Positions 8,690-53,922 of a stretch of 64,000 nucleotides of DNA are shown one piece after another (within the stretch, counting starts at the first letter, position 1; each line of letters opens with the position of its first letter). The notes below the pieces were generated by a model. That model ran no database searches, was not told the DNA's origin, and saw only the letters and a program-made list of their open reading frames with translations. Source of the stretch: an uncultured Eubacteriales bacterium (GTDB taxonomy: Bacteria > Bacillota > Clostridia > Christensenellales > Aristaeellaceae); assembly GCA_902790345.1 (NCBI GenBank), contig CADARO010000007.1, forward strand, positions 3,693 through 67,692. The letters are read 5' to 3'. The position numbers and the translations under genes are program-made.

Positions 8690-10393
8690 ATGAACAAACG
8701 GTTGACCGCACTTCTGCTCGCAGCGCTCATGATCCTCAGCTGCGGCACGGCCTTCGCGTCTGAAGGCCCGGACGACACGACGAACCATGAGCACTTCACC
8801 GTGTACTACAACTACTCCGCCTGGAACCACGTCTTTGGCGAGGACGAGTATTCCGCTTTCCTGGCCGAGAAGTTCAACGTGAGCATGGACTGGAGCGCCG
8901 GCGAGAACGACCCCGACGCGAAGCTGAACCTGATGATGTCCTCTGGCGACATGCCCGACATGATCATCACCGAGCGCGGCGCTGTGCACAACAAGGTTGC
9001 CCGCGCCGGCATGCTGGTGGACCTGGAGACCCTGATGTATGACGGCTGCTCCTTCGCCACCGACATCCCCGAGAGCGTCCGCGAGATGCTGAAGGTCGAC
9101 GGCAAGCTGTACGGCATCCCGAACTGGGCCCGTTCCGGCGCCACCGGCGGCAACTATCAGTGGATGATCAACTCTCAGATGTACGACGCCATCGGCGCCG
9201 AGAACATCGACATCACCACCCTGGAAGGCCTGCATGACTTCGCCATGGCGGTGAAGGAAGCCAACCTGACCTCCTACAATGGCGCTTCCGTGTATCCCTT
9301 CCTCTGCACCAACACGGACAACGGCTATTATGTGTACTTCCCGATGTTCCGCGCGCTGGGCGGCCGCGATGTGGTCGACAGCTACTGGACGCAGGAAGAC
9401 GGCGTCATCGAGTTCGGCGTTGACAACGCGAAGTTCGTCGAAGCTCTGAAGATCGCCAACACCTGGTTCAAGGAAGGCCTGTTCTCCGTCGAAGAGTTCT
9501 CCGACGACCAGCAGCAGTTCCTCGAGAAGCTGACCAACGGCCGTGGCGCCCTGGTGTGGTATGACTACTCTCAGGACAACACCAACAACTTCCGCCGCAT
9601 CACCCTGGAGCAGTCCGGCGGCGAGCAGGACTGGCTGGTTGTGGGCTATGACATCGGCGAGAAGGATCAGCAATTCCCTGGCGCCGAAGGCACCACCATC
9701 ACCTACGGTGACAGCGCTGGTGGTATCGGCTGGAACGTCAACTGCATCACCACCGCTTGCAAGAACCCCCAGCGTCTGTTCGACGTGTTCACCTACATGC
9801 TGACTCCCGAAGGCTCCCTGTTCATGCAGTATGGCCCCATTGGCGGCACCATGCTGGAGGATGTGGACTACAGCGGCGCTCTGCCGATGCCCATCCTGAA
9901 GAAGGACATCTCCGCCTTCACCTCCGACGAGTCCAACGCCGCTGGCGCCTGGTTCTGGTCTCAGCCCGCTCAGTCTGACTACGTGGACGGCATCAAGTTC
10001 GGCCTGAACGACCTGCTGCCCCCCGAGTCTCAGGACTGGGTCGTGACCCGTCAGGCTCACCTGTCCTCCTATGATCTGAACGACCTGCACATTGGCCAGA
10101 AGTTCATGACCGACCAGCTGACCAACATCACCGGCGAGATCGATCCTCAGGATGACCTGGGCATCTGCGTCAAGACCATCGAGGATCGCTGCCGCGAGCA
10201 GCTGCCGAAGATCATCATGGCGGCCGACGATGCGGAGTTCGAGAGCCTGATCGCCGATCTGTCCAGCTTCGCCAAGGCCAACCGCGTTGACGAGATCAAC
10301 GCCATCTGGCAGGCCAAGTTCGACAGCAACGTCGAGACCCAGGGCTTCGATGCCTACTCTGCCGAGTACGACGTGTATCATCTGAACAAGTAA
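8690..10393 (+). CDS. Extracellular solute-binding lipoprotein of a sugar ABC transporter (LplA-like)
   Basis: Signal peptide with a lipobox (LLLAALMILSC-G). About 560 aa, typical of large family-1 polysaccharide SBPs. AGGAGG RBS. Confidence 0.9.
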   Translation: MNKRLTALLLAALMILSCGTAFASEGPDDTTNHEHFTVYYNYSAWNHVFGEDEYSAFLAEKFNVSMDWSAGENDPDAKLNLMMSSGDMPDMIITERGAVHNKVARAGMLVDLETLMYDGCSFATDIPESVREMLKVDGKLYGIPNWARSGATGGNYQWMINSQMYDAIGAENIDITTLEGLHDFAMAVKEANLTSYNGASVYPFLCTNTDNGYYVYFPMFRALGGRDVVDSYWTQEDGVIEFGVDNAKFVEALKIANTWFKEGLFSVEEFSDDQQQFLEKLTNGRGALVWYDYSQDNTNNFRRITLEQSGGEQDWLVVGYDIGEKDQQFPGAEGTTITYGDSAGGIGWNVNCITTACKNPQRLFDVFTYMLTPEGSLFMQYGPIGGTMLEDVDYSGALPMPILKKDISAFTSDESNAAGAWFWSQPAQSDYVDGIKFGLNDLLPPESQDWVVTRQAHLSSYDLNDLHIGQKFMTDQLTNITGEIDPQDDLGICVKTIEDRCREQLPKIIMAADDAEFESLIADLSSFAKANRVDEINAIWQAKFDSNVETQGFDAYSAEYDVYHLNK

Positions 10394-10419
10394 TACACGG
10401 CGTTGTGCGTCATTTTCAC

Positions 10420-10476
10420 GGCAACAGAATATGGGCGACCACCTTCGGGCGGTCGCCCATTTCTGTTGCCTTTATG
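10420..10476 (+). terminator. Long-stem hairpin terminator between convergent genes
   Basis: GGCAACAGAATATGGGCGACC pairs with GGTCGCCCATTTCTGTTGCC (one bulge) and is followed by TTTAT. Confidence 0.65.
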
Positions 10477-10480
10477 CCTG

Positions 10481-11470
10481 TTATTCAAGCGGAAGCGAAG
10501 AGAGGAAATTCACGCTCCGCTCGATCCAGCCCCGCAGCGGGCTGAACAGCCCTTCGCCGAAGCCGTGATCCATGCCCTCGCCGATCTCCAGCTCATAGGG
10601 GATGCCCGCTTGCTTCAGGGCATCCGCCAGAATGTAGGAGTTGACGCAGTCGCAGGCATGGTCGCTGTTGCCGTGGATGATATAGGTGGGCGGGAAGGCC
10701 TCGATGTGCTCCTCCACATTCCAGTCCGTCCTGGCCGCTTCTTTGATGGTGAGGCCGTGGGTCGTGATGCCGAAGCCGTCCACGTCCCAGTCATCGCGAA
10801 CGCCCTTCCAGGAGACAAACCCGTACACCGAGATGTTCATCACCGGCCTGGGCAGCCCATAGGCTGGATAGCCGTGGTTAGCCGTGCACCAGGAATTCAC
10901 CAAATATCCGCCCGCGGAGAAGCCGGCGGTGAAGTAATGCCCCGCGTTCAGGTGGAGCGCCGCCCCGTGGGCCTCGATATACCTGAGAAGCCGCGCCATA
11001 TCCTCCAGCGGCGCCGGATAGAGCTTCTCGCCGCCGACGCGGTAATTCAGGACGACCGCGTGATAGCCCAGCTGGTTGTAGTGATTGGCGATGGGGAATC
11101 CCTCGCTCATGTTCCAGATCTGTGTGTTTCCACCGCCGGGAACGCACACGAGGAAGGGCTTTTCATCCGCGTCGGGATCCATGGAGGGGAAAAGCATGAA
11201 GCAGGCCTGCTGTTTTTTCGGGTCGGCCTTGATCTCCTCATCGGAATACAGCGGATAGAGGAAGGAGCCTTCTTCGGCGGCTTCCAGCAGCCGGTTGAAG
11301 CCGTTCAGCAGGGTATATCCGTGAAACATCCGCCGGCGCGAGAGCTCTTCGATCGTCATGTCATAAAACGGCGCCTGTGAGAGGTCCAATCCGACCACCA
11401 TTCTGTCGGCGTAGGGCTTGATCCTCGGATCGGTCATGATTTCCTTCAGCGTATTTTTTCTGGTGAACAT
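10481..11470 (-). CDS. Alpha/beta hydrolase (acetyl-esterase/lipase-like)
   Basis: Oxyanion region VCVPGGGN. Nucleophile elbow GFSAGG. C-terminal HGNSDHACD...GMDHGFG. A GGAAGGAG RBS is 8 nt before the MFTRKN... ATG. Confidence 0.8.
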   Translation of the reverse strand: MFTRKNTLKEIMTDPRIKPYADRMVVGLDLSQAPFYDMTIEELSRRRMFHGYTLLNGFNRLLEAAEEGSFLYPLYSDEEIKADPKKQQACFMLFPSMDPDADEKPFLVCVPGGGNTQIWNMSEGFPIANHYNQLGYHAVVLNYRVGGEKLYPAPLEDMARLLRYIEAHGAALHLNAGHYFTAGFSAGGYLVNSWCTANHGYPAYGLPRPVMNISVYGFVSWKGVRDDWDVDGFGITTHGLTIKEAARTDWNVEEHIEAFPPTYIIHGNSDHACDCVNSYILADALKQAGIPYELEIGEGMDHGFGEGLFSPLRGWIERSVNFLSSLPLE

Positions 11471-25570: not shown

Positions 25571-27295
25571 TCAGCCTTCCTCCAGCCGCGCCCAGAGGGC
25601 CTCAGAGGCGTTTTCCGCCGGGAGGACGGGGCAGTCTAAGGGGCAGCCCTCGCCCAGCCACAGGGTCTCCAGGCGGTCGGAGGAGATGTGCATGCGCAGG
25701 GCGTCCTCCTCCTCGGCGGTGAGGGCCGGGGCGGAGGCGATCACCAGCACGCCGGCGGCCAGCAGGGTCAGAACCCGGGCAGGCAGCTCGTTCAGCGTGG
25801 CCTCGCGCTCCTCGAGGGTAGCGGCGGCGCTCACGCCCAGGTAGTAGGCCGGGCGGCCGGCCTCCAGCAGGCGGCGCTCCAGGGCGGCCGCCGCTTCACG
25901 CACGCGCTCCGCGTTTGAGCCGGAGAGCAGCAGCACCCGGGGCCGCTGACGCAGCATCGCGGCGCGCTCGGCGGGGGAGACGTCGCCCGTCTGCCAGGCG
26001 CGCTGGCCGGAGGCGCTACCCTCCTCGGTCTCGCTGAGGGCCTCGGCGAAGATGCCGCCGCCGGAGATCTCGTAGTCGTCCACGATGACAAAGCGGTTGG
26101 TGGCCGCCAGGTCGCCGGTGTCGTCGAAGGCCACCAGCTTGCTGGCCGAGAGCACGCACTCCGCCACCTCGTGGCGATCCACCTCCTGCTTCTGAACCCG
26201 ATGCAGGCTGGAGGCGTCCATGACGCTGAGGATCTTTTCCAGCCGACACTCCACCTTGGCGGAGCCGGTCTTGAGGTAGTAGGTCTTGCCGGGCACCATG
26301 GGGGATCGGCCCAGCCAGAACAGGCTCACGCGCACGCGGCTGGCCACCTTGGGGGGCATCTCGCCCGCCCGGGCGCACAGCTCGCCCCGGCGCACGTAGA
26401 TCTGCTCGGTCATGGTGAATCCGGCGGCGTAGCCCGCGGCGGCGACGCCTTCCGCTTCGTCCGACCGCATGGGCTCGATCCGGTTCACATGGGTGCGCTT
26501 GCCGGAGGGATAGAACACCACCTCGTCGCCGGCGCGCAGCGAGCCGGTCTCCACCGTGCCCGCGATGATGCGGCGGCTGTCGCCGTGGGTGAACTTGTAC
26601 ACGTCCTGCACGGGCATGCGCAGGGGCAGGTTCTCCAGGGAGCCGGGGGTGTGGAACTCGTCCAGCATGTCCAGCACGGTGGGGCCGTCGTACCAGGGCA
26701 TGCGCTCGCTCTTTTGGGCGATGTTGTCGCCCTCCCGGGCGCTGACGGGGATGAAGCCCTCGGGCGAAATGCCGATCTCCTTCAGGAATTCGCTGTACTG
26801 GGACACGATGTCCTCGTAGACGGCGCGGTCGTAGTCCACCAGGTCCATCTTGTTCACCATCACGCAGATCTGCCGGATGCCCAGCATGGCCAGCATGTAG
26901 CCGTGACGGCGGGAGTTCTCCTGAACGCCCTCGTGGGCGTCGATGACCAGCAGCGCCGCGGCAGCCCGGGAGGCCCCGGTGATCATGTTTTTCAGGAACT
27001 CGATGTGTCCGGGGGCGTCGATGATGATGTACTGGCGCTTTTTCGTGTGGAAGAAGCAGCGGGCGGTGTCGATGGTGATGCCCTGGGAGCGCTCGTCCTT
27101 GAGGGCGTCCAGCAGGAAGGCGTATTCAAAGGGCTTGTCGTTGCGACGGCACATCTCGCGGATCTGCTCCAGCTTGCCCTGGGGCAGGGCCCCGGTGTCG
27201 GCCAGCAGCCGGCCGATGACCGTGCTCTTGCCGTGATCCACGTGGCCCACGATGACGATGTTCATGTGCTCCCGGCGATTTTGCTGGGTGTCCAT
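25571..27295 (-). CDS. cysN: Sulfate adenylyltransferase subunit 1 (CysN GTPase) with a C-terminal degenerate APS-kinase-like domain
   Basis: G1 box GHVDHGKST. Also DAPGH and NKMD. EF-Tu-like domains II and III are present. About 145 extra C-terminal residues follow. The start overlaps the cysD stop by 1 nt (TAATG). Confidence 0.9.
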
Positions 27296-28182
27296 TACAT
27301 GTAGCCTCCCTTGCGCAGCTCTTCCAGTCCGCCGCCGTCCTCCTTGTCCTGCTCCCGGCCGGAGCGCTCGGCGATGTTGGCGAATTTCCCCGTCTTCAGC
27401 TCCTCGATGATCTCATCCAGGTTTTTCGCGGTGGAGTCCACCGGCTTGGTGCAGGGCCAGCAGCCCAGGGAGCGGTATCGCTTGCCCTGGCCGTGATCGA
27501 AGTACAGCGACACCACGGGCACGTTTTCCCGCCGGATGTACTCCCACACGTCCAGCTCCGTCCAGTCCAGCAGGGGATGCACGCGGATGTGGGTGCCGGG
27601 GCGGAAGTCGGTCTTGTACTGGCCCCAGAACTCCGGGGGCTGGTCGCCGATGTCCCAGTCGTTGTTGCGGTCCCGGGGGGAGAAATAGCGCTCCTTGGAG
27701 CGGCTGCCCTCCTCGTCCGCCCGCACGCCCACGATGACGCCGGTGTAGATCTCGGTGGTCGCCGTATCATTAAAAAAAAAAGTCTCGTGGTTCATGCGGT
27801 AGCGGGGCCAGGTGCCGGCCAGGGTGTGGGCCAGCGCCTCGGTCTTCAGCGCCTTGCAGCACTCGATGCGCGTGGCGTTGCCGTCCGGGAAGGTGGCCTT
27901 GTCCCGCAGCGCCTCGGCGTTCTCGCCGTAGACCATGTCCAGATGCCACTTGCGGGCCAGCATGTCCCGATACTCGATCATTTCGGGGATCTTGTAGTGG
28001 GTGTCGATGTGCACGAGCGGAAAGGGCACGTGGCCGTAAAACGCCTTGCGCGCCAGACAGAGCAACACCGTGGAGTCCTTTCCGATGGACCAGAGCATGC
28101 ACAGGCTCTTGAACTGGCTGTATGCCTCCCGGATGATGTGGATGGAGCGCGCCTCCAGCTGGTCGAGATGATCCATATCCAT
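27295..28182 (-). CDS. cysD: Sulfate adenylyltransferase subunit 2 (CysD)
   Basis: PP-loop [11 protein letters not shown]. Also [34 protein letters not shown] and SLGCWPCT. Confidence 0.9.
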
Positions 28183-28189
28183 TCCCTCT

Positions 28190-29584
28190 CTACAGTCGGC
28201 GCAGCTGATTTTGCGCCGCGTTGATGATGTAAAAGCCCTTTCGGTTCAGCGAGTCGGCCCGGTTGTAGGTCATCTCCGAGCCGTCGCCCTGGCGGAAGAC
28301 GGCTCCCGCCTGTTCCGCCACGCACTGAACGGCGGCGGTGTCCCACTCCATGGTGGGGCCGTTGCGGTAGTAGAGATCCGCCGCGCCTCGGGCGATGAGA
28401 CAGCCCTTCAGGGAGCTGCCGGCGGGCCGGGTCTCGGCGATCCTGCTCCGGTTGGCTTCGATCAGCGCCCGGGTCTCGTCGTCCGTGTGGGAGCGGCTGA
28501 GCATCATGACGAGGTTTTCATGCCGGTCCGACACGCGGATGGGCTCCGCCGTGCCGATGGGATCGTCCGCCTTCGACGCCGCCGGGCAGTAGAACGCTCC
28601 CAGCCCCTCCGCGGCGAAATACAATTCGTCCAGCACCGGGGCATAGACCACGCCCATGACGCTTCGGCCCCGGTATGACAGGGCGATGTTCACGGTGAAC
28701 TCGCCGTTTTTCTTCACGAATTCCTTGGTGCCGTCCAGGGGATCCACGATGAAGCAGAAGGGGTTGCCCAGCCGGGCGGGGTCATCCGCCCGCTCCTCGG
28801 AGAGCAGGGCGTAGCCGGGGAAATCCCGCTGGAGCGCCGCGGCGATGAGCCCGTCCGCGGCGGTGTCCGCCTCGGTGAGGGGCGACGAATCCGCCTTGTA
28901 GGACACGGCGAAGTCCCGCCCGTACACCTCCATGATGGCCCGGCCCGCTTCCAGCGAGGCGCTCACGGCGGTGCGCAGCAGCGCGTCGTAGGGGATGGAC
29001 AGCCGCTGGGCCGCCAGGAGGACCGCCTCAACGCATTCGTCCACGGACATGCGCTCCGTGTCCAGCGTGAGCTCGGGCGTCTCCGGCGGCTCGTAGGGGG
29101 AGGACACGCCGGTGAATTCGGCGATCTCGCCCCGCATGGCCCGGGCGTAGAGTCCCTTCGGGTCCCGGGCGGCGCAGGCTGCCACGCTGGCTTTGACGTA
29201 GATCTCGCAGAAGGGCGCCCGCTTTTCCACTCGGGCCCGGGCGTCGGAGCGGGTCTGGCGATAGGGCGATATGGCGCTCACCAGCACGATCATGCCCGCG
29301 TCCGCGAACAGCGCGGCCACCTCGGCGATGCGGCGGATGTTCTCGTCCCGGTCGGCGGGGGAGAAGCCCAGATCGCCGTTGAGGCCGTGGCGCAGGTTGT
29401 CGCCGTCCAGCAGATACGCCGCGCGGCCCCCTTCGATCAGCGCCTTTTCCACCCGGGTGGCAATGGTGGACTTGCCTGAGCCGGACAGGCCGGTGAGCCA
29501 CAGCACCGCGCCCCGCTGCCTAAGCGCCTTCTGGCGATCCGCCCGGGACGCCAGCGCCCTTTGCCAAACGATGTTTTTTTCCAT
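28190..29584 (-). CDS. cysC: Bifunctional adenylyl-sulfate kinase (CysC) / 3'(2'),5'-bisphosphate nucleotidase (CysQ-like) fusion
   Basis: N-terminal half: [45 protein letters not shown]-terminal half carries inositol-monophosphatase-fold motifs: [20 protein letters not shown]. Confidence 0.9.
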
Positions 29585-29626
29585 AATATAAACAGCCCCC
29601 GCGTTTCATCAGGATAGCCGTTCCCA

Positions 29627-29655
29627 CTATACTTCACCGGCATTTCTTTGTCAAG
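29627..29655 (-). promoter_or_regulatory. Sigma-A-type promoter for the cysC/Q-cysD-cysN operon
   Basis: On the minus strand: TTGACA, a 17-nt spacer, then TATAGT, about 40 nt upstream of the ATG. Confidence 0.55.
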
Positions 29656-29739
29656 CGGCGCTGGTTATTTCTTTGGGGATAGGATAAAATGAGCGCCGGA
29701 TTCCGACAAATCCCGGCGCGACGGGGCGGATTTTCGCTC

Positions 29740-29769
29740 TTGCGAAGGCCGGGGCCGGCATGGTATAAT
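29740..29769 (+). promoter_or_regulatory. Sigma-A-type promoter (extended -10) for the sulfotransferase gene
   Basis: TTGCGA, an 18-nt spacer, then TGgTATAAT, about 35 nt upstream of the ATG. Confidence 0.5.
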
Positions 29770-29804
29770 GCACACAAAAAGAGGCATGCAAAGGAGCGAT
29801 GAAT

Positions 29805-30527
29805 ATGTTTGTCACGATCATCGGGCGCGGTCATTCCGGCACCCGCGCCATGTCCCACACCCTCAGCGCCAGCGGCGTGTTCATGGGCGCGCCCCTGAAC
29901 AAATCCGGCGACCTGCTGCCCCCGGAGAGCATGTACGAGGCCTGCCGCGTGTTCGCCAAATACGTGGACTACAAGGGCGGCCTGGAGTGGGATTTCTCCA
30001 GGGTGCTGGCCATGGAGCCCGATCCGGCGTTCGTGCGGCTGGTGGAGGATTTCCTGGTGACCGTGCTGAGAACGGATAACGGCAATCGCGGCTGGAAGCT
30101 GCCCGAAACCACGCTGGTCTATCCCTGGATCGTGAAGATGTTTCCGGAGATTCACTACATCCACTGGGTGCGGGACCCCCGGGACTGCATCCTCGGCGTC
30201 CACCTCACCGACGACCTGAACGACTTCGGCGTGAAATACGACAAGACGGAGGACGTGCGCCGCAACCGCGCCATCAGCTGGCTGTATCAGCGGGAGATCG
30301 TCAGGGCCACCCCCGCCCCGGAGAAGACCATCTCCGTGCGGTTCGAGGATCTGGTGTTCGATCAGGACAACACGCTGGCCCGGGTGGGCGACTTCCTGGG
30401 CATCCCCCTCAACAAGATCGAGATGCGCCCCGACTCCGTGGGCCGCTACAGGACCGACGAGGGCGTCCACATGTACGACTTCTTCAAGGCGGACATGCTG
30501 GCCTGCGGATACGAGCTGGAACAGTGA
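29805..30527 (+). CDS. PAPS-dependent sulfotransferase family protein (acceptor unknown)
   Basis: 5'-PSB-like loop FVTIIGRGHSGTRAMS. 3'-PB-like IHWVRDPRDCILG. About 240 aa. AAGGAG lies 8 nt before the second ATG (29805); the first ATG (29799) is only 2 nt from the RBS. Confidence 0.7.
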   Translation: MFVTIIGRGHSGTRAMSHTLSASGVFMGAPLNKSGDLLPPESMYEACRVFAKYVDYKGGLEWDFSRVLAMEPDPAFVRLVEDFLVTVLRTDNGNRGWKLPETTLVYPWIVKMFPEIHYIHWVRDPRDCILGVHLTDDLNDFGVKYDKTEDVRRNRAISWLYQREIVRATPAPEKTISVRFEDLVFDQDNTLARVGDFLGIPLNKIEMRPDSVGRYRTDEGVHMYDFFKADMLACGYELEQ

Positions 30528-30586: not shown

Positions 30587-31252
30587 TCACCAGTCGCTGC
30601 TCCAGTCGGTGTCGGAGGAATCCCAGCTGTCGAAGACGCTGCTGTCCGAGGAGGAGTCGCTGGGCTCCTCGTAGTAGCCGGAGTTGCTGAAATCGTCGCG
30701 GCTGTCCTCGAAGGGGTAGTCCTCGCCGTAGTAGGCGTCCTGATACCACTCGTCGCCCTCCGGCGTGTCGTAGATCGTCCAGTCGTCGGCGTAGTCGTCG
30801 AAGAGGTACCAGTAGTTGTTCTGATAGTAGTAGATGTCGTCGTCCACCCGGTAATAGCCCCGCCTGGGCGACTTGATGGCCCGATACAGGCCGAAGGCGG
30901 CCCCGGCCAGGCAGATCACGATGAGCCCGGTGGAGAGCGCCTTTTGAAGGCCGCTGGTCTGCTTTTTCGGCGTCGGGCCCGCCTTGGCCCGGCGCAGCTC
31001 GATCTCGGAATTGATCTTGGCCCAGATCTCCTGGGCGGCGTAGGCCTCGTCCGGCCCGGCGTATCGGATGGCCCGGGAGCCGTCCGCCTTGTTCTTGTAC
31101 ACGATCCAGCGGTCGGCCTCGTCGTCGTGATAGATGCCGAAGCAGCGCGGCTCCTGCCGGTTTTCACCGATGAAAAAGCGCATCGTCTCCAGCGGCATGC
31201 CCCGCTCGGCGGCCCGCTGAAGCAGCTCCTCGACGGAATGAACCTGATCCAT
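30587..31252 (-). CDS. Single-pass membrane protein with an extreme Asp/Tyr/Trp/Ser-rich C-terminal tail (hypothetical)
   Basis: High GC3 and an AAAGAGG RBS. TM helix LSTGLIVICLAGAAFGLY. Tail: YYRVDDDIYYYQNNYWYLFDDYADDW...SDSSSDSSVFDSWDSSDTDWSSDW. Confidence 0.65.
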   Translation of the reverse strand: MDQVHSVEELLQRAAERGMPLETMRFFIGENRQEPRCFGIYHDDEADRWIVYKNKADGSRAIRYAGPDEAYAAQEIWAKINSEIELRRAKAGPTPKKQTSGLQKALSTGLIVICLAGAAFGLYRAIKSPRRGYYRVDDDIYYYQNNYWYLFDDYADDWTIYDTPEGDEWYQDAYYGEDYPFEDSRDDFSNSGYYEEPSDSSSDSSVFDSWDSSDTDWSSDW

Positions 31253-50529: not shown

Positions 50530-53216
<2,687 letters not shown>

Positions 53217-53364
53217 GAATGAAAAACCTCCGAGGTACATTTTCCCATACTGAGTTATTTTAACATAGCGAAGGCGGGTATGCAAGCGGAATCGTGTTAT
53301 ATTGATAAGGGACAAGCCCCGCCAACAGTATATATGGCTATGTGCCGGATAAGGAGAATAGATC

Positions 53365-53922
53365 ATGACGCTTGAAAACCAGCTGGAAGCCTATATGCCC
53401 GTCAACGAGCAGGAAGCCCGCGATCGTTCGCTGATGCTGCGCTTCCTGCGCGAAGGCGAGACGCCTTTCTCCCGATCCAACGAGACGGCCCACTTCACCG
53501 CCTCGGCCTGGGTGACCAACGCTGCCCGGGACCGGGTGCTCATGGCCTTCCACAACATCTACAATTCCTGGGCCTGGACCGGCGGCCACGCGGACGGGGA
53601 GACCGACCTGGCGGCGGTGGCCCGGCGGGAGGCGGCGGAAGAGACCGGGGTGAGCGGCCTTCGGCTGGTGAGCGAGACGCCCGTGTCCCTGGAGATCATC
53701 ACCGTGGATGGCCACGAGAAGCGGGGCCGCTACGTGTCCTCGCACCTGCATTACAATGTGACCTACCTCTTAGAGGCGGACGACGACGCCCCGCTCACCG
53801 CCAAGCCGGACGAGAACAGCGGCGTTCGCTGGTTCGAGCCGGAGGAGGCGCTGGCCGCCAGCGCGGAGCCCTGGATGGTGGAGCGGGTGTACAGAAAGCT
53901 GATCGAAAAGATGAAAAAGTGA
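53365..53922 (+). CDS. NUDIX hydrolase
   Basis: Nudix box [33 protein letters not shown]. Confidence 0.85.

Follow-up and report, generated by a model that had tools for sequence, protein, structure and literature searches.

This work describes a four-gene cassette at positions 25571-30527 of a 64-kb stretch of contig CADARO010000007.1 from an uncultured Eubacteriales bacterium; the whole stretch analysed is referred to below as the window. Three tightly packed minus-strand genes encode proteins for the synthesis of 3'-phosphoadenosine 5'-phosphosulfate (PAPS) and for removal of its by-product, and a small putative sulfotransferase (ST) is encoded divergently from them. We propose, with a probability of about 0.7, that the cassette is a module that makes PAPS for sulfonation. 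In this model CysD and the CysN GTPase would turn sulfate into adenosine 5'-phosphosulfate (APS), the CysC domain of a CysC-CysQ fusion would phosphorylate APS to PAPS, the cytoplasmic ST would transfer the sulfuryl group of PAPS to an acceptor, at a hydroxyl or an amino group, and the CysQ domain would hydrolyse the inhibitory by-product 3'-phosphoadenosine 5'-phosphate (PAP) to adenosine monophosphate. The operon would serve mainly as a donor supply for the ST, not as an entry into cysteine synthesis. From the gene identities, the fold, the conserved motifs and the conserved linkage set out below, we infer that the operon is dedicated to the ST. The features concerned are the following.

25465-25482, minus strand: terminator-like hairpin and T-run, about 90 nt past the cysN stop (terminator scan, consensus match only)
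25571-27295, minus strand: cysN, 574 residues, GTPase subunit of heterodimeric ATP sulfurylase, last gene of the operon
25574-26008, minus strand: C-terminal degenerate APS-kinase-like domain of CysN, residues about 430-574, about 145 residues
27295-28182, minus strand: cysD, 295 residues, PP-loop subunit of ATP sulfurylase
28190-29584, minus strand: cysC-cysQ fusion, 464 residues, first gene of the operon
about 28256-28981, minus strand: 3'(2'),5'-bisphosphate nucleotidase domain of the fusion, residues 202-443 (Pfam Inositol_P)
about 29060-29515, minus strand: APS kinase domain of the fusion, residues 24-175 (Pfam APS_kinase)
29585-29798: divergent promoter region between cysC-cysQ and the ST gene
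29654-29626, minus strand: cys promoter, TTGACA-17-TATAGT (promoter scan)
29740-29769, plus strand: ST promoter, TTGCGA-18-TGgTATAAT, with an upstream TG (promoter scan)
29799-30527, plus strand: ST open reading frame (ORF), 242 residues; probable start at 29805, giving 240 residues
30587-31252, minus strand: 221-residue single-pass membrane protein, convergent to the ST gene

This layout bears out the first-pass annotation of the stretch, which had described three packed minus-strand genes with a 7-nt gap and a 1-nt overlap, and an ORF of about 240 residues on the opposite strand, 214 bp away. By its coordinates the gap (28183-28189) separates cysC-cysQ from cysD, and the overlap at 27295 is a TAATG through which cysD is predicted to be translationally coupled to cysN. 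The divergent start codons of cysC-cysQ and the ST lie 214 bp apart (29585-29798), and in an alignment the ST homologues begin at the second methionine, the third codon of the ORF, at 29805. The hairpin beyond cysN is a possible end of the operon. An origin of the cassette in foreign DNA, as judged by a composition signature, was considered and dropped, since the GC content of about 65% is even over the cassette and its flanks.

The proposal that the operon encodes both the conversion of sulfate to PAPS and the clearance of PAP is upheld by domain models for each of its products. CysD (NF003587, score 352.1 against a cutoff of 195; Pfam PAPS_reduct, E=8.9e-41) and CysN (TIGR02034, 353.8 against 336.1; Pfam GTP_EFTU, E=7.5e-48) both exceed curated cutoffs and are encoded by overlapping genes, as in a heterodimeric ATP sulfurylase. 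CysN carries the G1, G3 and G4 motifs GHVDHGKS, DAPGH and NKMD, and CysD is 82-93% identical to its orthologues in related cassettes. The CysC domain scores 233.2 with TIGR00455 (cutoff 138.7) and E=1.7e-64 with Pfam APS_kinase, and retains an intact P-loop, GLSGSGKST, in keeping with a true APS kinase. The C-terminal domain of the fusion is very probably CysQ, judging by its match to Pfam Inositol_P (E=1.2e-49), its DPLDGT and WDTAA motifs and a TIGR01331 score of 224.6, slightly below the cutoff of 228.8. At least 120 protein clusters contain the same CysC-CysQ fusion; their named sources are mostly Clostridia/Oscillospiraceae, and they are annotated merely as CysQ or adenylyl-sulfate kinase.

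The divergently encoded protein had been taken for a sulfotransferase from two PAPS-binding motifs, with its family and fold left to be checked, and both of these sustain the identification. It matches Pfam Sulfotransfer_3 (PF13469) over residues 7-205 with 54.4 bits (cutoff 27, E=2.7e-14). An AlphaFold2 model built with 45 homologues has a predicted local distance difference test score (pLDDT) of 92.5 and a predicted template-modelling score (pTM) of 0.88, and displays the alpha/beta fold of sulfotransferases. The top 30 matches of this model in the PDB by Foldseek are all sulfotransferases (probability 0.99-1.00, template-modelling (TM) score 0.36-0.61, identity 11-20%); prominent among them are TPST1/2, the Alicyclobacillus ST 3rnl, the ST domains of CurM and OLS, Stf1 and heparan 3-O-sulfotransferases. 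The translation contains IIGRGHSGTRAMS and IHWVRDPRDCILG, the core residues of which are invariant in the 45 homologues, and across the same set GRGHSGTR, WKxPETT, VRDPRD and VGRY are largely invariant. The 5'-phosphosulfate-binding loop of these enzymes follows strand 1 and has the canonical form [KR]-S/T-G-T-T; the corresponding donor loop of the ST clade, GRGHSGTR, is itself invariant. Within VRDPRD, residues R125-D129 are invariant and align in a PDB profile search with VRDGRAS of TPST1, the 3'-phosphate-binding segment, and V214, G215 and R216 of VGRY are invariant in a C-terminal motif that resembles G-x-x-G-R/K. No membrane segment is found in the ST, nor a signal peptide, since the first residues make strand 1, and the protein is taken to be cytoplasmic. 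PAPS-dependent sulfuryl transfer by the ST is a prediction, which gains indirect support from the conserved linkage to PAPS-synthesis genes.

The ST belongs to a large clade, with 3225 homologues at E<=1e-3 that are typically 60-98% identical and come from rumen, gut, termite-gut, digester and sediment anaerobes. An exact-sequence look-up of the ST itself gave no match, and its context is drawn from these homologues. One homologue, encoded at 10001-10738 of a locus from a Kiritimatiellia metagenome-assembled genome (MAG; L030), is 61% identical, and fused homologues are found also in Planctomycetota and Chloroflexota. This occurrence across phyla would indicate unusually strong conservation of the sequence, or horizontal spread.

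The evidence that ties the ST to PAPS synthesis comes from a survey of its loci, in which 26 genome loci, 80 metagenome loci and contigs from exact look-ups were gathered, the cys genes were located by tblastn and ORF clustering, and 100 loci were kept after removal of duplicates (individual loci and contigs are cited by numbers with the prefix L). PAPS-synthesis genes are present in the available flank of 31 of these 100 non-redundant loci, within 700 bp of the ST in 27 of the 31, and in 19 of the 38 loci that have at least 3 kb on both sides. By our own estimate a single-copy operon falls within the 20-kb neighbourhood of a random gene in about 1% of genomes of this size, and the pairing of ST and PAPS genes is far beyond chance. 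Clostridia from rumen, gut and digesters share the divergent arrangement of ST and cysC(Q)-cysD-cysN, with ST identities as low as 62-63%; in other lineages cysD is accompanied by a true cysN-cysC fusion, which is convergent to the ST or a few kilobases off. In one locus (L027, 6344-9828) an HpaII-type restriction-modification system has been inserted precisely where the ST and the cys operon would otherwise adjoin; it comprises an endonuclease and two C5 methylases, of which one has a Vsr domain. These arrangements are varied and therefore speak for selection for linkage rather than for shared ancestry alone. The co-occurrence that the first-pass annotation had suggested surveying is thus found in several arrangements, and it is seen from the other side as well: four of six CysC-CysQ homologues on long contigs have this ST divergently adjacent. 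In the fifth, the complete genome of the Mycoplasmatota bacterium zrk1 (CP134194.1; L117, 2507-17350), the cysC/Q-cysD-cysN operon, with a pseudo-kinase tail on CysN, lies just 3' of a possible sulfate-type ABC transporter and inside a polysaccharide-biosynthesis cluster (Polysacc_synt_2, Bac_transf, PglD-like, DegT, GT4, UDP-glucose dehydrogenase), which implies a predicted sulfated surface glycan in a cultured organism; in the sixth the operon follows a similar transporter. Neither cysH nor a sulfite reductase gene lies within 8 kb of any of the six.

Among the relatives, the closest match in a genome is the sheep-rumen 'Clostridia bacterium' MAG RGIG6655, which has the same cassette and an ST 96% identical, and two metagenome contigs with an ST 98% identical share the downstream layout of the window as far as the genes for DHDPS and a solute-binding protein. 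In other close relatives of the window the cassette is extended, by a TauE/SafE-family permease (L006, 1425-4592, beyond cysN; L043, 3732-5199) or by a canonical CxPxR sulfatase (L006; L007, 2011-3522), and L006 gains a GFO/IDH/MocA gene in addition. In place of these additions the window has a GH18 gene, which L114 retains, and a GH36-like gene. Thirteen of the 100 loci, all of them without cys genes, have a conserved protein of about 139 residues with no Pfam match encoded divergently upstream of the ST (L001, 9312-9731, minus strand; L002-L005, L010, L018, L021, L044, L049, L052, L053 and L055), a partner that stays syntenic at just 35-39% identity.

What is absent from the surroundings of the operon bears equally on its role. 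The first-pass annotation had recognised no PAPS or APS reductase, sulfite reductase, cysteine synthase or sulfate permease in the 64 kb, and Pfam scans of about 60 ORFs of the window agree at the sensitivity of Pfam, a few ORFs having no Pfam match: the only member of the PAPS/APS reductase family is CysD itself, and none of the others is seen. The sole PALP protein carries ACT domains and is for that reason read as of the threonine-dehydratase type, and the ABC systems look like sugar-type transporters. Among the 121 flanking ORFs of the cys-bearing relatives no assimilatory family is found among the recurrent ones. Sulfur control in Firmicutes usually operates through S-box or T-box leaders; an Rfam scan of the whole 64 kb returned no family and hence neither of these, and the cys leader, at only about 40 nt, is too short for a riboswitch. 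The locus thus lacks, over 64 kb, both the reductive genes and the leaders of an assimilatory sulfate-reduction regulon. This absence of assimilatory genes and leaders from the window, and of such genes from the recurrent families around related cassettes, supports a donor-supply role, and together with the fold and the co-conservation it supports the original suggestion that the cassette makes PAPS for sulfonation. Two outcomes named at first pass as refuting that suggestion, a fold other than that of a sulfotransferase and a want of co-conservation with the PAPS genes, were looked for and not seen.

The two promoters of the divergent region had also been noted at first pass, and a promoter scan recovers exactly TTGACA-17-TATAGT and TTGCGA-18-TATAAT with its TG. 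The sites match the consensus at 11 of 12 and 10 of 12 positions, in a scan that found 3 promoter-like sites in 6.5 kb where 0.8 were expected. The intergenic region is conserved between the window and L006. In many relatives (L008, L013, L016, L033, L073 and others) the -35 boxes stand back to back as GTCAA, 7-9 nt and TTGAAA; in the window and L006 they are about 85 bp apart, and the insertion common to both includes an imperfect inverted repeat (29693-29719). Back-to-back promoters would suit co-regulation of the ST with the cys operon. The repeat was considered as an operator and dropped, as its complementarity is lost in L006 and the segment is absent from more distant relatives.

The nature of the acceptor is approached through the partners of the ST in other genomes. 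A gene of the sulfatase family (about 460-500 residues, PF00884 with SGSH_C) is found near the ST in 28 of the 100 loci and directly adjacent to it in 16. It is usually accompanied by genes for a xylose-isomerase-like TIM-barrel protein and for one or two GFO/IDH/MocA oxidoreductases, and in some loci by a rhamnose mutarotase gene as well. The closest solved structures to this partner are S1 sulfatases. In the adjacent copies T-T-P/S-x-Y replaces the formylglycine motif C/S-x-P-x-R, and no signal peptide is found. The association extends to fusion: ST and sulfatase-like domain are joined in one polypeptide in at least 75 protein clusters (P0121-P0195), the named organisms being Planctomycetota and Chloroflexota (for example L104, 8546-10786, and L109, 1087-3705). 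Operon versions occur in L030, L072, L092, L098 and L107, Clostridia versions in L115, L119 and L120, and several Clostridia loci unite the cys operon, the ST and the sulfatase-like module. Furthermore, fusions to a GT61 or GT4 glycosyltransferase, a CE15 glucuronoyl esterase, TPR repeats or a methyltransferase are found in ST relatives of 41-55% identity (P0362, P0364, P0397, P0363, P0366, P0402). The sulfatase-like partner, the operons with sugar enzymes and the fusions to glycosyltransferases and CE15 make a carbohydrate-like acceptor more likely than a sterol or lipid, and we lean tentatively, at a little under even odds, towards such an acceptor, be it a small molecule or a glycan precursor. 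More doubtful, though a possibility we would entertain, is that the ST clade, the sulfatase homologue with the Thr-Thr motif, the GFO/IDH/MocA proteins and the xylose-isomerase-like protein together form a new pathway to a sulfated sugar- or cyclitol-like metabolite, which in Clostridia would have a private PAPS supply. The immediate neighbours of the ST in the window (GH18, GH36-like, a GDSL esterase and the 221-residue membrane protein) are all lineage-specific. GDPD, NagB-like, GH43 and GH18 genes beside the ST were tried as clues to the acceptor and dropped, each being lineage-specific too. Literature searches on the ST clade, on cysDN with a sulfotransferase in Clostridia and on Oscillibacter sulfotransferases gave nothing specific, and none was found on the combination of sulfatase, MocA, xylose-isomerase-like protein and sulfotransferase.

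Several observations weigh against a dedicated sulfonation module with a carbohydrate-like acceptor. Nearby cys genes are missing from about half of the well-flanked ST loci, and a local PAPS operon is therefore not strictly needed. The NCBIfam scan gives the ST no match, there being no model; its clade is biochemically uncharacterised, and the sources name its members only 'sulfotransferase' or 'hypothetical protein'. The donor loop has His12, flanked by Arg10 and Arg16, where Sulfotransfer_3 and TPST proteins have Arg/Lys, by an alignment of motifs with TPST2 (PRSGTT) in which His12 stands before S-G-T at the canonical Arg/Lys; the donor chemistry of the ST is for this reason an assumption. 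The window has none of the sulfatase-like, oxidoreductase and isomerase partners, from whose presence in relatives the carbohydrate-like acceptor is borrowed. Finally, the visible part of the genome spans 64 kb, and a cysH/sir pathway elsewhere could draw on this as the single cysDNC copy and would find CysQ useful as well, as CysH also yields PAP. The last point leads to ordinary assimilation, in which the operon would supply PAPS for cysteine synthesis by reductases of PAPS and sulfite whose genes lie elsewhere, with the ST as an incidental or secondary user. CysDN and CysC are the canonical first half of assimilation, and the sulfate-type ABC transporters that precede the operon in L117 and L118 would fit any pathway that uses sulfate; the ST loci without adjacent cys genes, about half of them, also speak for assimilation. 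We nevertheless hold assimilation to be rather improbable: cysH, sir and cysK are missing from the window and from the 8-10 kb around each of dozens of related operons, no sulfur-responsive leader is found in the 64 kb, the linkage to the ST survives several rearrangements and spans families, and in L117 an operon of the same type lies inside a glycan-biosynthesis cluster.

Other readings concern the ST itself. Its best PDB matches are human TPST1/2 (Foldseek E=3e-6; profile E=0.003), and the 221-residue neighbour (30587-31252, minus strand), which Pfam and NCBIfam scans do not match to any family, consists of a globular N-terminal part, a single membrane segment and a tail very rich in Tyr and Asp/Glu/Ser, e.g. 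DDDIYYYQNNYWYLFDDYADDW; with 9% Tyr and 20% Asp+Glu, and acidic residues flanking the tyrosines, it could be imagined as the substrate of a TPST/RaxST-like tyrosine sulfotransferase. This is very unlikely. The TPSTs rank at the top with TM-scores of only about 0.5 and 17% identity, the CurM ST domain scores higher at 0.61, and the neighbour, shared by the two nearest contigs (L112 and L113), is missing from all other related loci, including those with 96%, 93% and 90% ST identity, whereas thousands of ST sequences retain 60-98% identity. The acidic tail, which follows a membrane segment in a protein with no signal peptide, is also probably extracellular and beyond the reach of a cytoplasmic enzyme. 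Tyrosine sulfation was accordingly rejected as the general function of the ST, since its supposed substrate occurs in the nearest contigs only. That the ST acts on lipids of the host or diet (sterols, bile acids or hydroxy fatty acids) in the manner of BtSULT or ErSULT appears quite unlikely, though less remote. The logic of the locus matches that of BT0413-BT0416, with an ST beside cysD/N/C, and there is a GDSL lipase gene at a distance of 0.8 kb; the latter is not conserved beyond the nearest contigs, the clade comes from anaerobes of rumen, termite gut and digesters, and all recurrent partners and fusions of assignable function are carbohydrate-related or sulfatase-like. ErSULT speaks for a lipid role in showing that a Firmicute Sulfotransfer_3 enzyme can sulfonate hydroxy fatty acids, and its sole close structural match is Stf1 of M. 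tuberculosis at a root-mean-square deviation (RMSD) of 1.08 A (PMC13449962). The ST model matches Stf1 (2zq5) poorly, at rank 16 with a TMq of 0.46 and an RMSD of 12 A, and the ST has 240 residues against 365 in the Stf1 chain; in this comparison by way of Stf1, ErSULT appears to belong to another subfamily. A last possibility, which we rate as the merest outside chance, is that the ST-fold protein is a regulatory or channelling partner that binds PAPS or PAP for the sulfatase-like enzyme and is not an external transferase. The invariant variant donor loop of the clade with His for Arg/Lys, the many fusions to a sulfatase homologue with TTPxY in place of the formylglycine motif, and the unusually high conservation of the ST across phyla would fit such a role. 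However, in the window, as in many Clostridia loci, the ST stands with no sulfatase-like partner nearby, the remaining sulfotransferase motifs are all intact, and relatives are fused to glycosyltransferases, as a tailoring enzyme would be.

A further feature of the operon is the tail of CysN. In an alignment that takes in true CysC domains and the tails of relatives, its P-loop is degenerate, reading GSNAERVRE instead of GLSGSGKST, and the lid region is absent; with the P-loop lost, the tail would not be a working APS kinase by this measure, and the true APS kinase of the cassette is the separate CysC domain fused to CysQ. A Pfam scan of the window tail gives no match, and precomputed Pfam assignments find APS_kinase in the tails of relatives; every one of those examined is also degenerate in its P-loop (GRKNSDRKT, GNIQIDKKE or TGKSSTDKKT), and the tail of the window is the more eroded. 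Degenerate tails occur also in L008, L020, L029 and L115-L120. The fungal ATP sulfurylase of Penicillium chrysogenum bears a C-terminal APS-kinase-like allosteric domain, and the two cases share a dead APS-kinase-like domain on a sulfate-activating enzyme, with the true APS kinase separate; they differ in that the fungal enzyme is a homo-oligomeric sulfurylase and the tail here sits on the CysN GTPase. By this analogy, which applies to the CysN tail only, the tail may be a regulatory or scaffolding pseudo-kinase.

The wider window also encodes a SpoIIE-domain sporulation-type phosphatase, many glycoside hydrolases and sugar ABC systems. Because of these genes and of the match to RGIG6655, a Clostridia-type, plant-fibre-associated anaerobe is a fair description of the host. 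As a separate observation, SecA is split across overlapping ORFs in different frames (50530-52797 and 52200-53366, both on the minus strand), one with the DEAD and preprotein-binding (N-terminal) regions and the other with the P-loop, wing/scaffold and SEC-C regions, which suggests a frameshift, through assembly error or in a pseudogene.

Sulfotransferases of gut and rumen bacteria are only beginning to be assigned, and the conserved pairing of ST and PAPS operon provides a ready four-gene expression unit for discovery of the product by isotope labelling; the formylglycine-less sulfatase homologue and the sugar-modifying enzymes narrow the search. If abundant fibre-degrading Clostridia do make a sulfated carbohydrate or glycoside, the ecology of rumen and gut would gain a sulfur sink, and possibly a metabolite with a signalling or protective role. 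Were the ST to act with the Thr-type sulfatase homologue, the result would be a new pathway of sulfated metabolites in anaerobes, not one more tailoring sulfotransferase.

A PAPS operon beside a small sulfotransferase is a known design, as in nodPQ-nodH and BT0413-BT0416. In Sinorhizobium meliloti, nodPQ-nodH reportedly combines dedicated PAPS synthesis with a Nod-factor sulfotransferase, and the mycobacterial sulfolipid genes are a further case of a private PAPS supply beside a small sulfotransferase. The rhizobial system shares with the cassette a second-purpose CysD/CysN(-CysC) set beside a small cytoplasmic PAPS-dependent sulfotransferase of about 250 residues, with PAPS made for sulfonation and not for assimilation, and NodH sulfates a carbohydrate, a lipo-chitooligosaccharide. 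It differs in that here a separate APS kinase is fused to CysQ, the kinase-like tail of CysN is degenerate and the host is a Clostridia-type anaerobe; the likeness drawn here is one of layout.

Closer in habitat is the cholesterol-sulfation locus BT0413-BT0416 of Bacteroides thetaiotaomicron (BtSULT), work that reportedly dates from 2022 and in which PAPS-synthesis genes likewise accompany a sulfotransferase in a gut anaerobe. The first-pass annotation had drawn this analogy. In layout it stands, the ST being divergently adjacent to the PAPS genes across a 214-bp spacer, an adjacency that is conserved in relatives; as a pointer to a sterol acceptor it finds no support, and the comparative evidence points to carbohydrate-like acceptors. 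The Bacteroides locus belongs to another phylum and was compared by layout and description, and the window has no sterol-related neighbours, the partners of the ST clade being of carbohydrate type or sulfatase-like. BtSULT is assigned to Sulfotransfer_3 in the report on ErSULT (PMC13449962). That report, of 2026, shows PAPS-dependent activity for ErSULT of Eubacterium ramulus, a Firmicute gut enzyme of the same Pfam family, on 3- and 16-hydroxyhexadecanoic acid, and in the available part describes no linkage to a cys operon (PMC13449962). It demonstrates that Clostridia make sulfated metabolites and overtakes the earlier remark that no characterised equivalent was known in that group. With its Stf1-like structure (PMC13449962), ErSULT appears to stand apart from the ST.

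The nearest solved structures, TPST1/2 and the 'activating' ST domains of CurM and OLS, share a Sulfotransfer_3-type core and the 3'-phosphate motif with the ST, and differ from it at 15-19% identity and TM-scores of 0.5-0.6. The TPSTs are membrane enzymes of the Golgi lumen that act on acidic Tyr peptides, with Arg in the donor loop where the ST has His, and the CurM/OLS sulfotransferases are domains embedded in polyketide synthases. Against these systems, the unusual details of the cassette are the predicted clearance of by-product by a fused CysC-CysQ, the apparent pseudo-kinase tail of CysN and the His-type donor loop. The more original lead is at the level of the family, in the tight coupling, across several phyla and up to fusion, of the ST clade with a formylglycine-less sulfatase homologue and with sugar oxidoreductases and isomerases.

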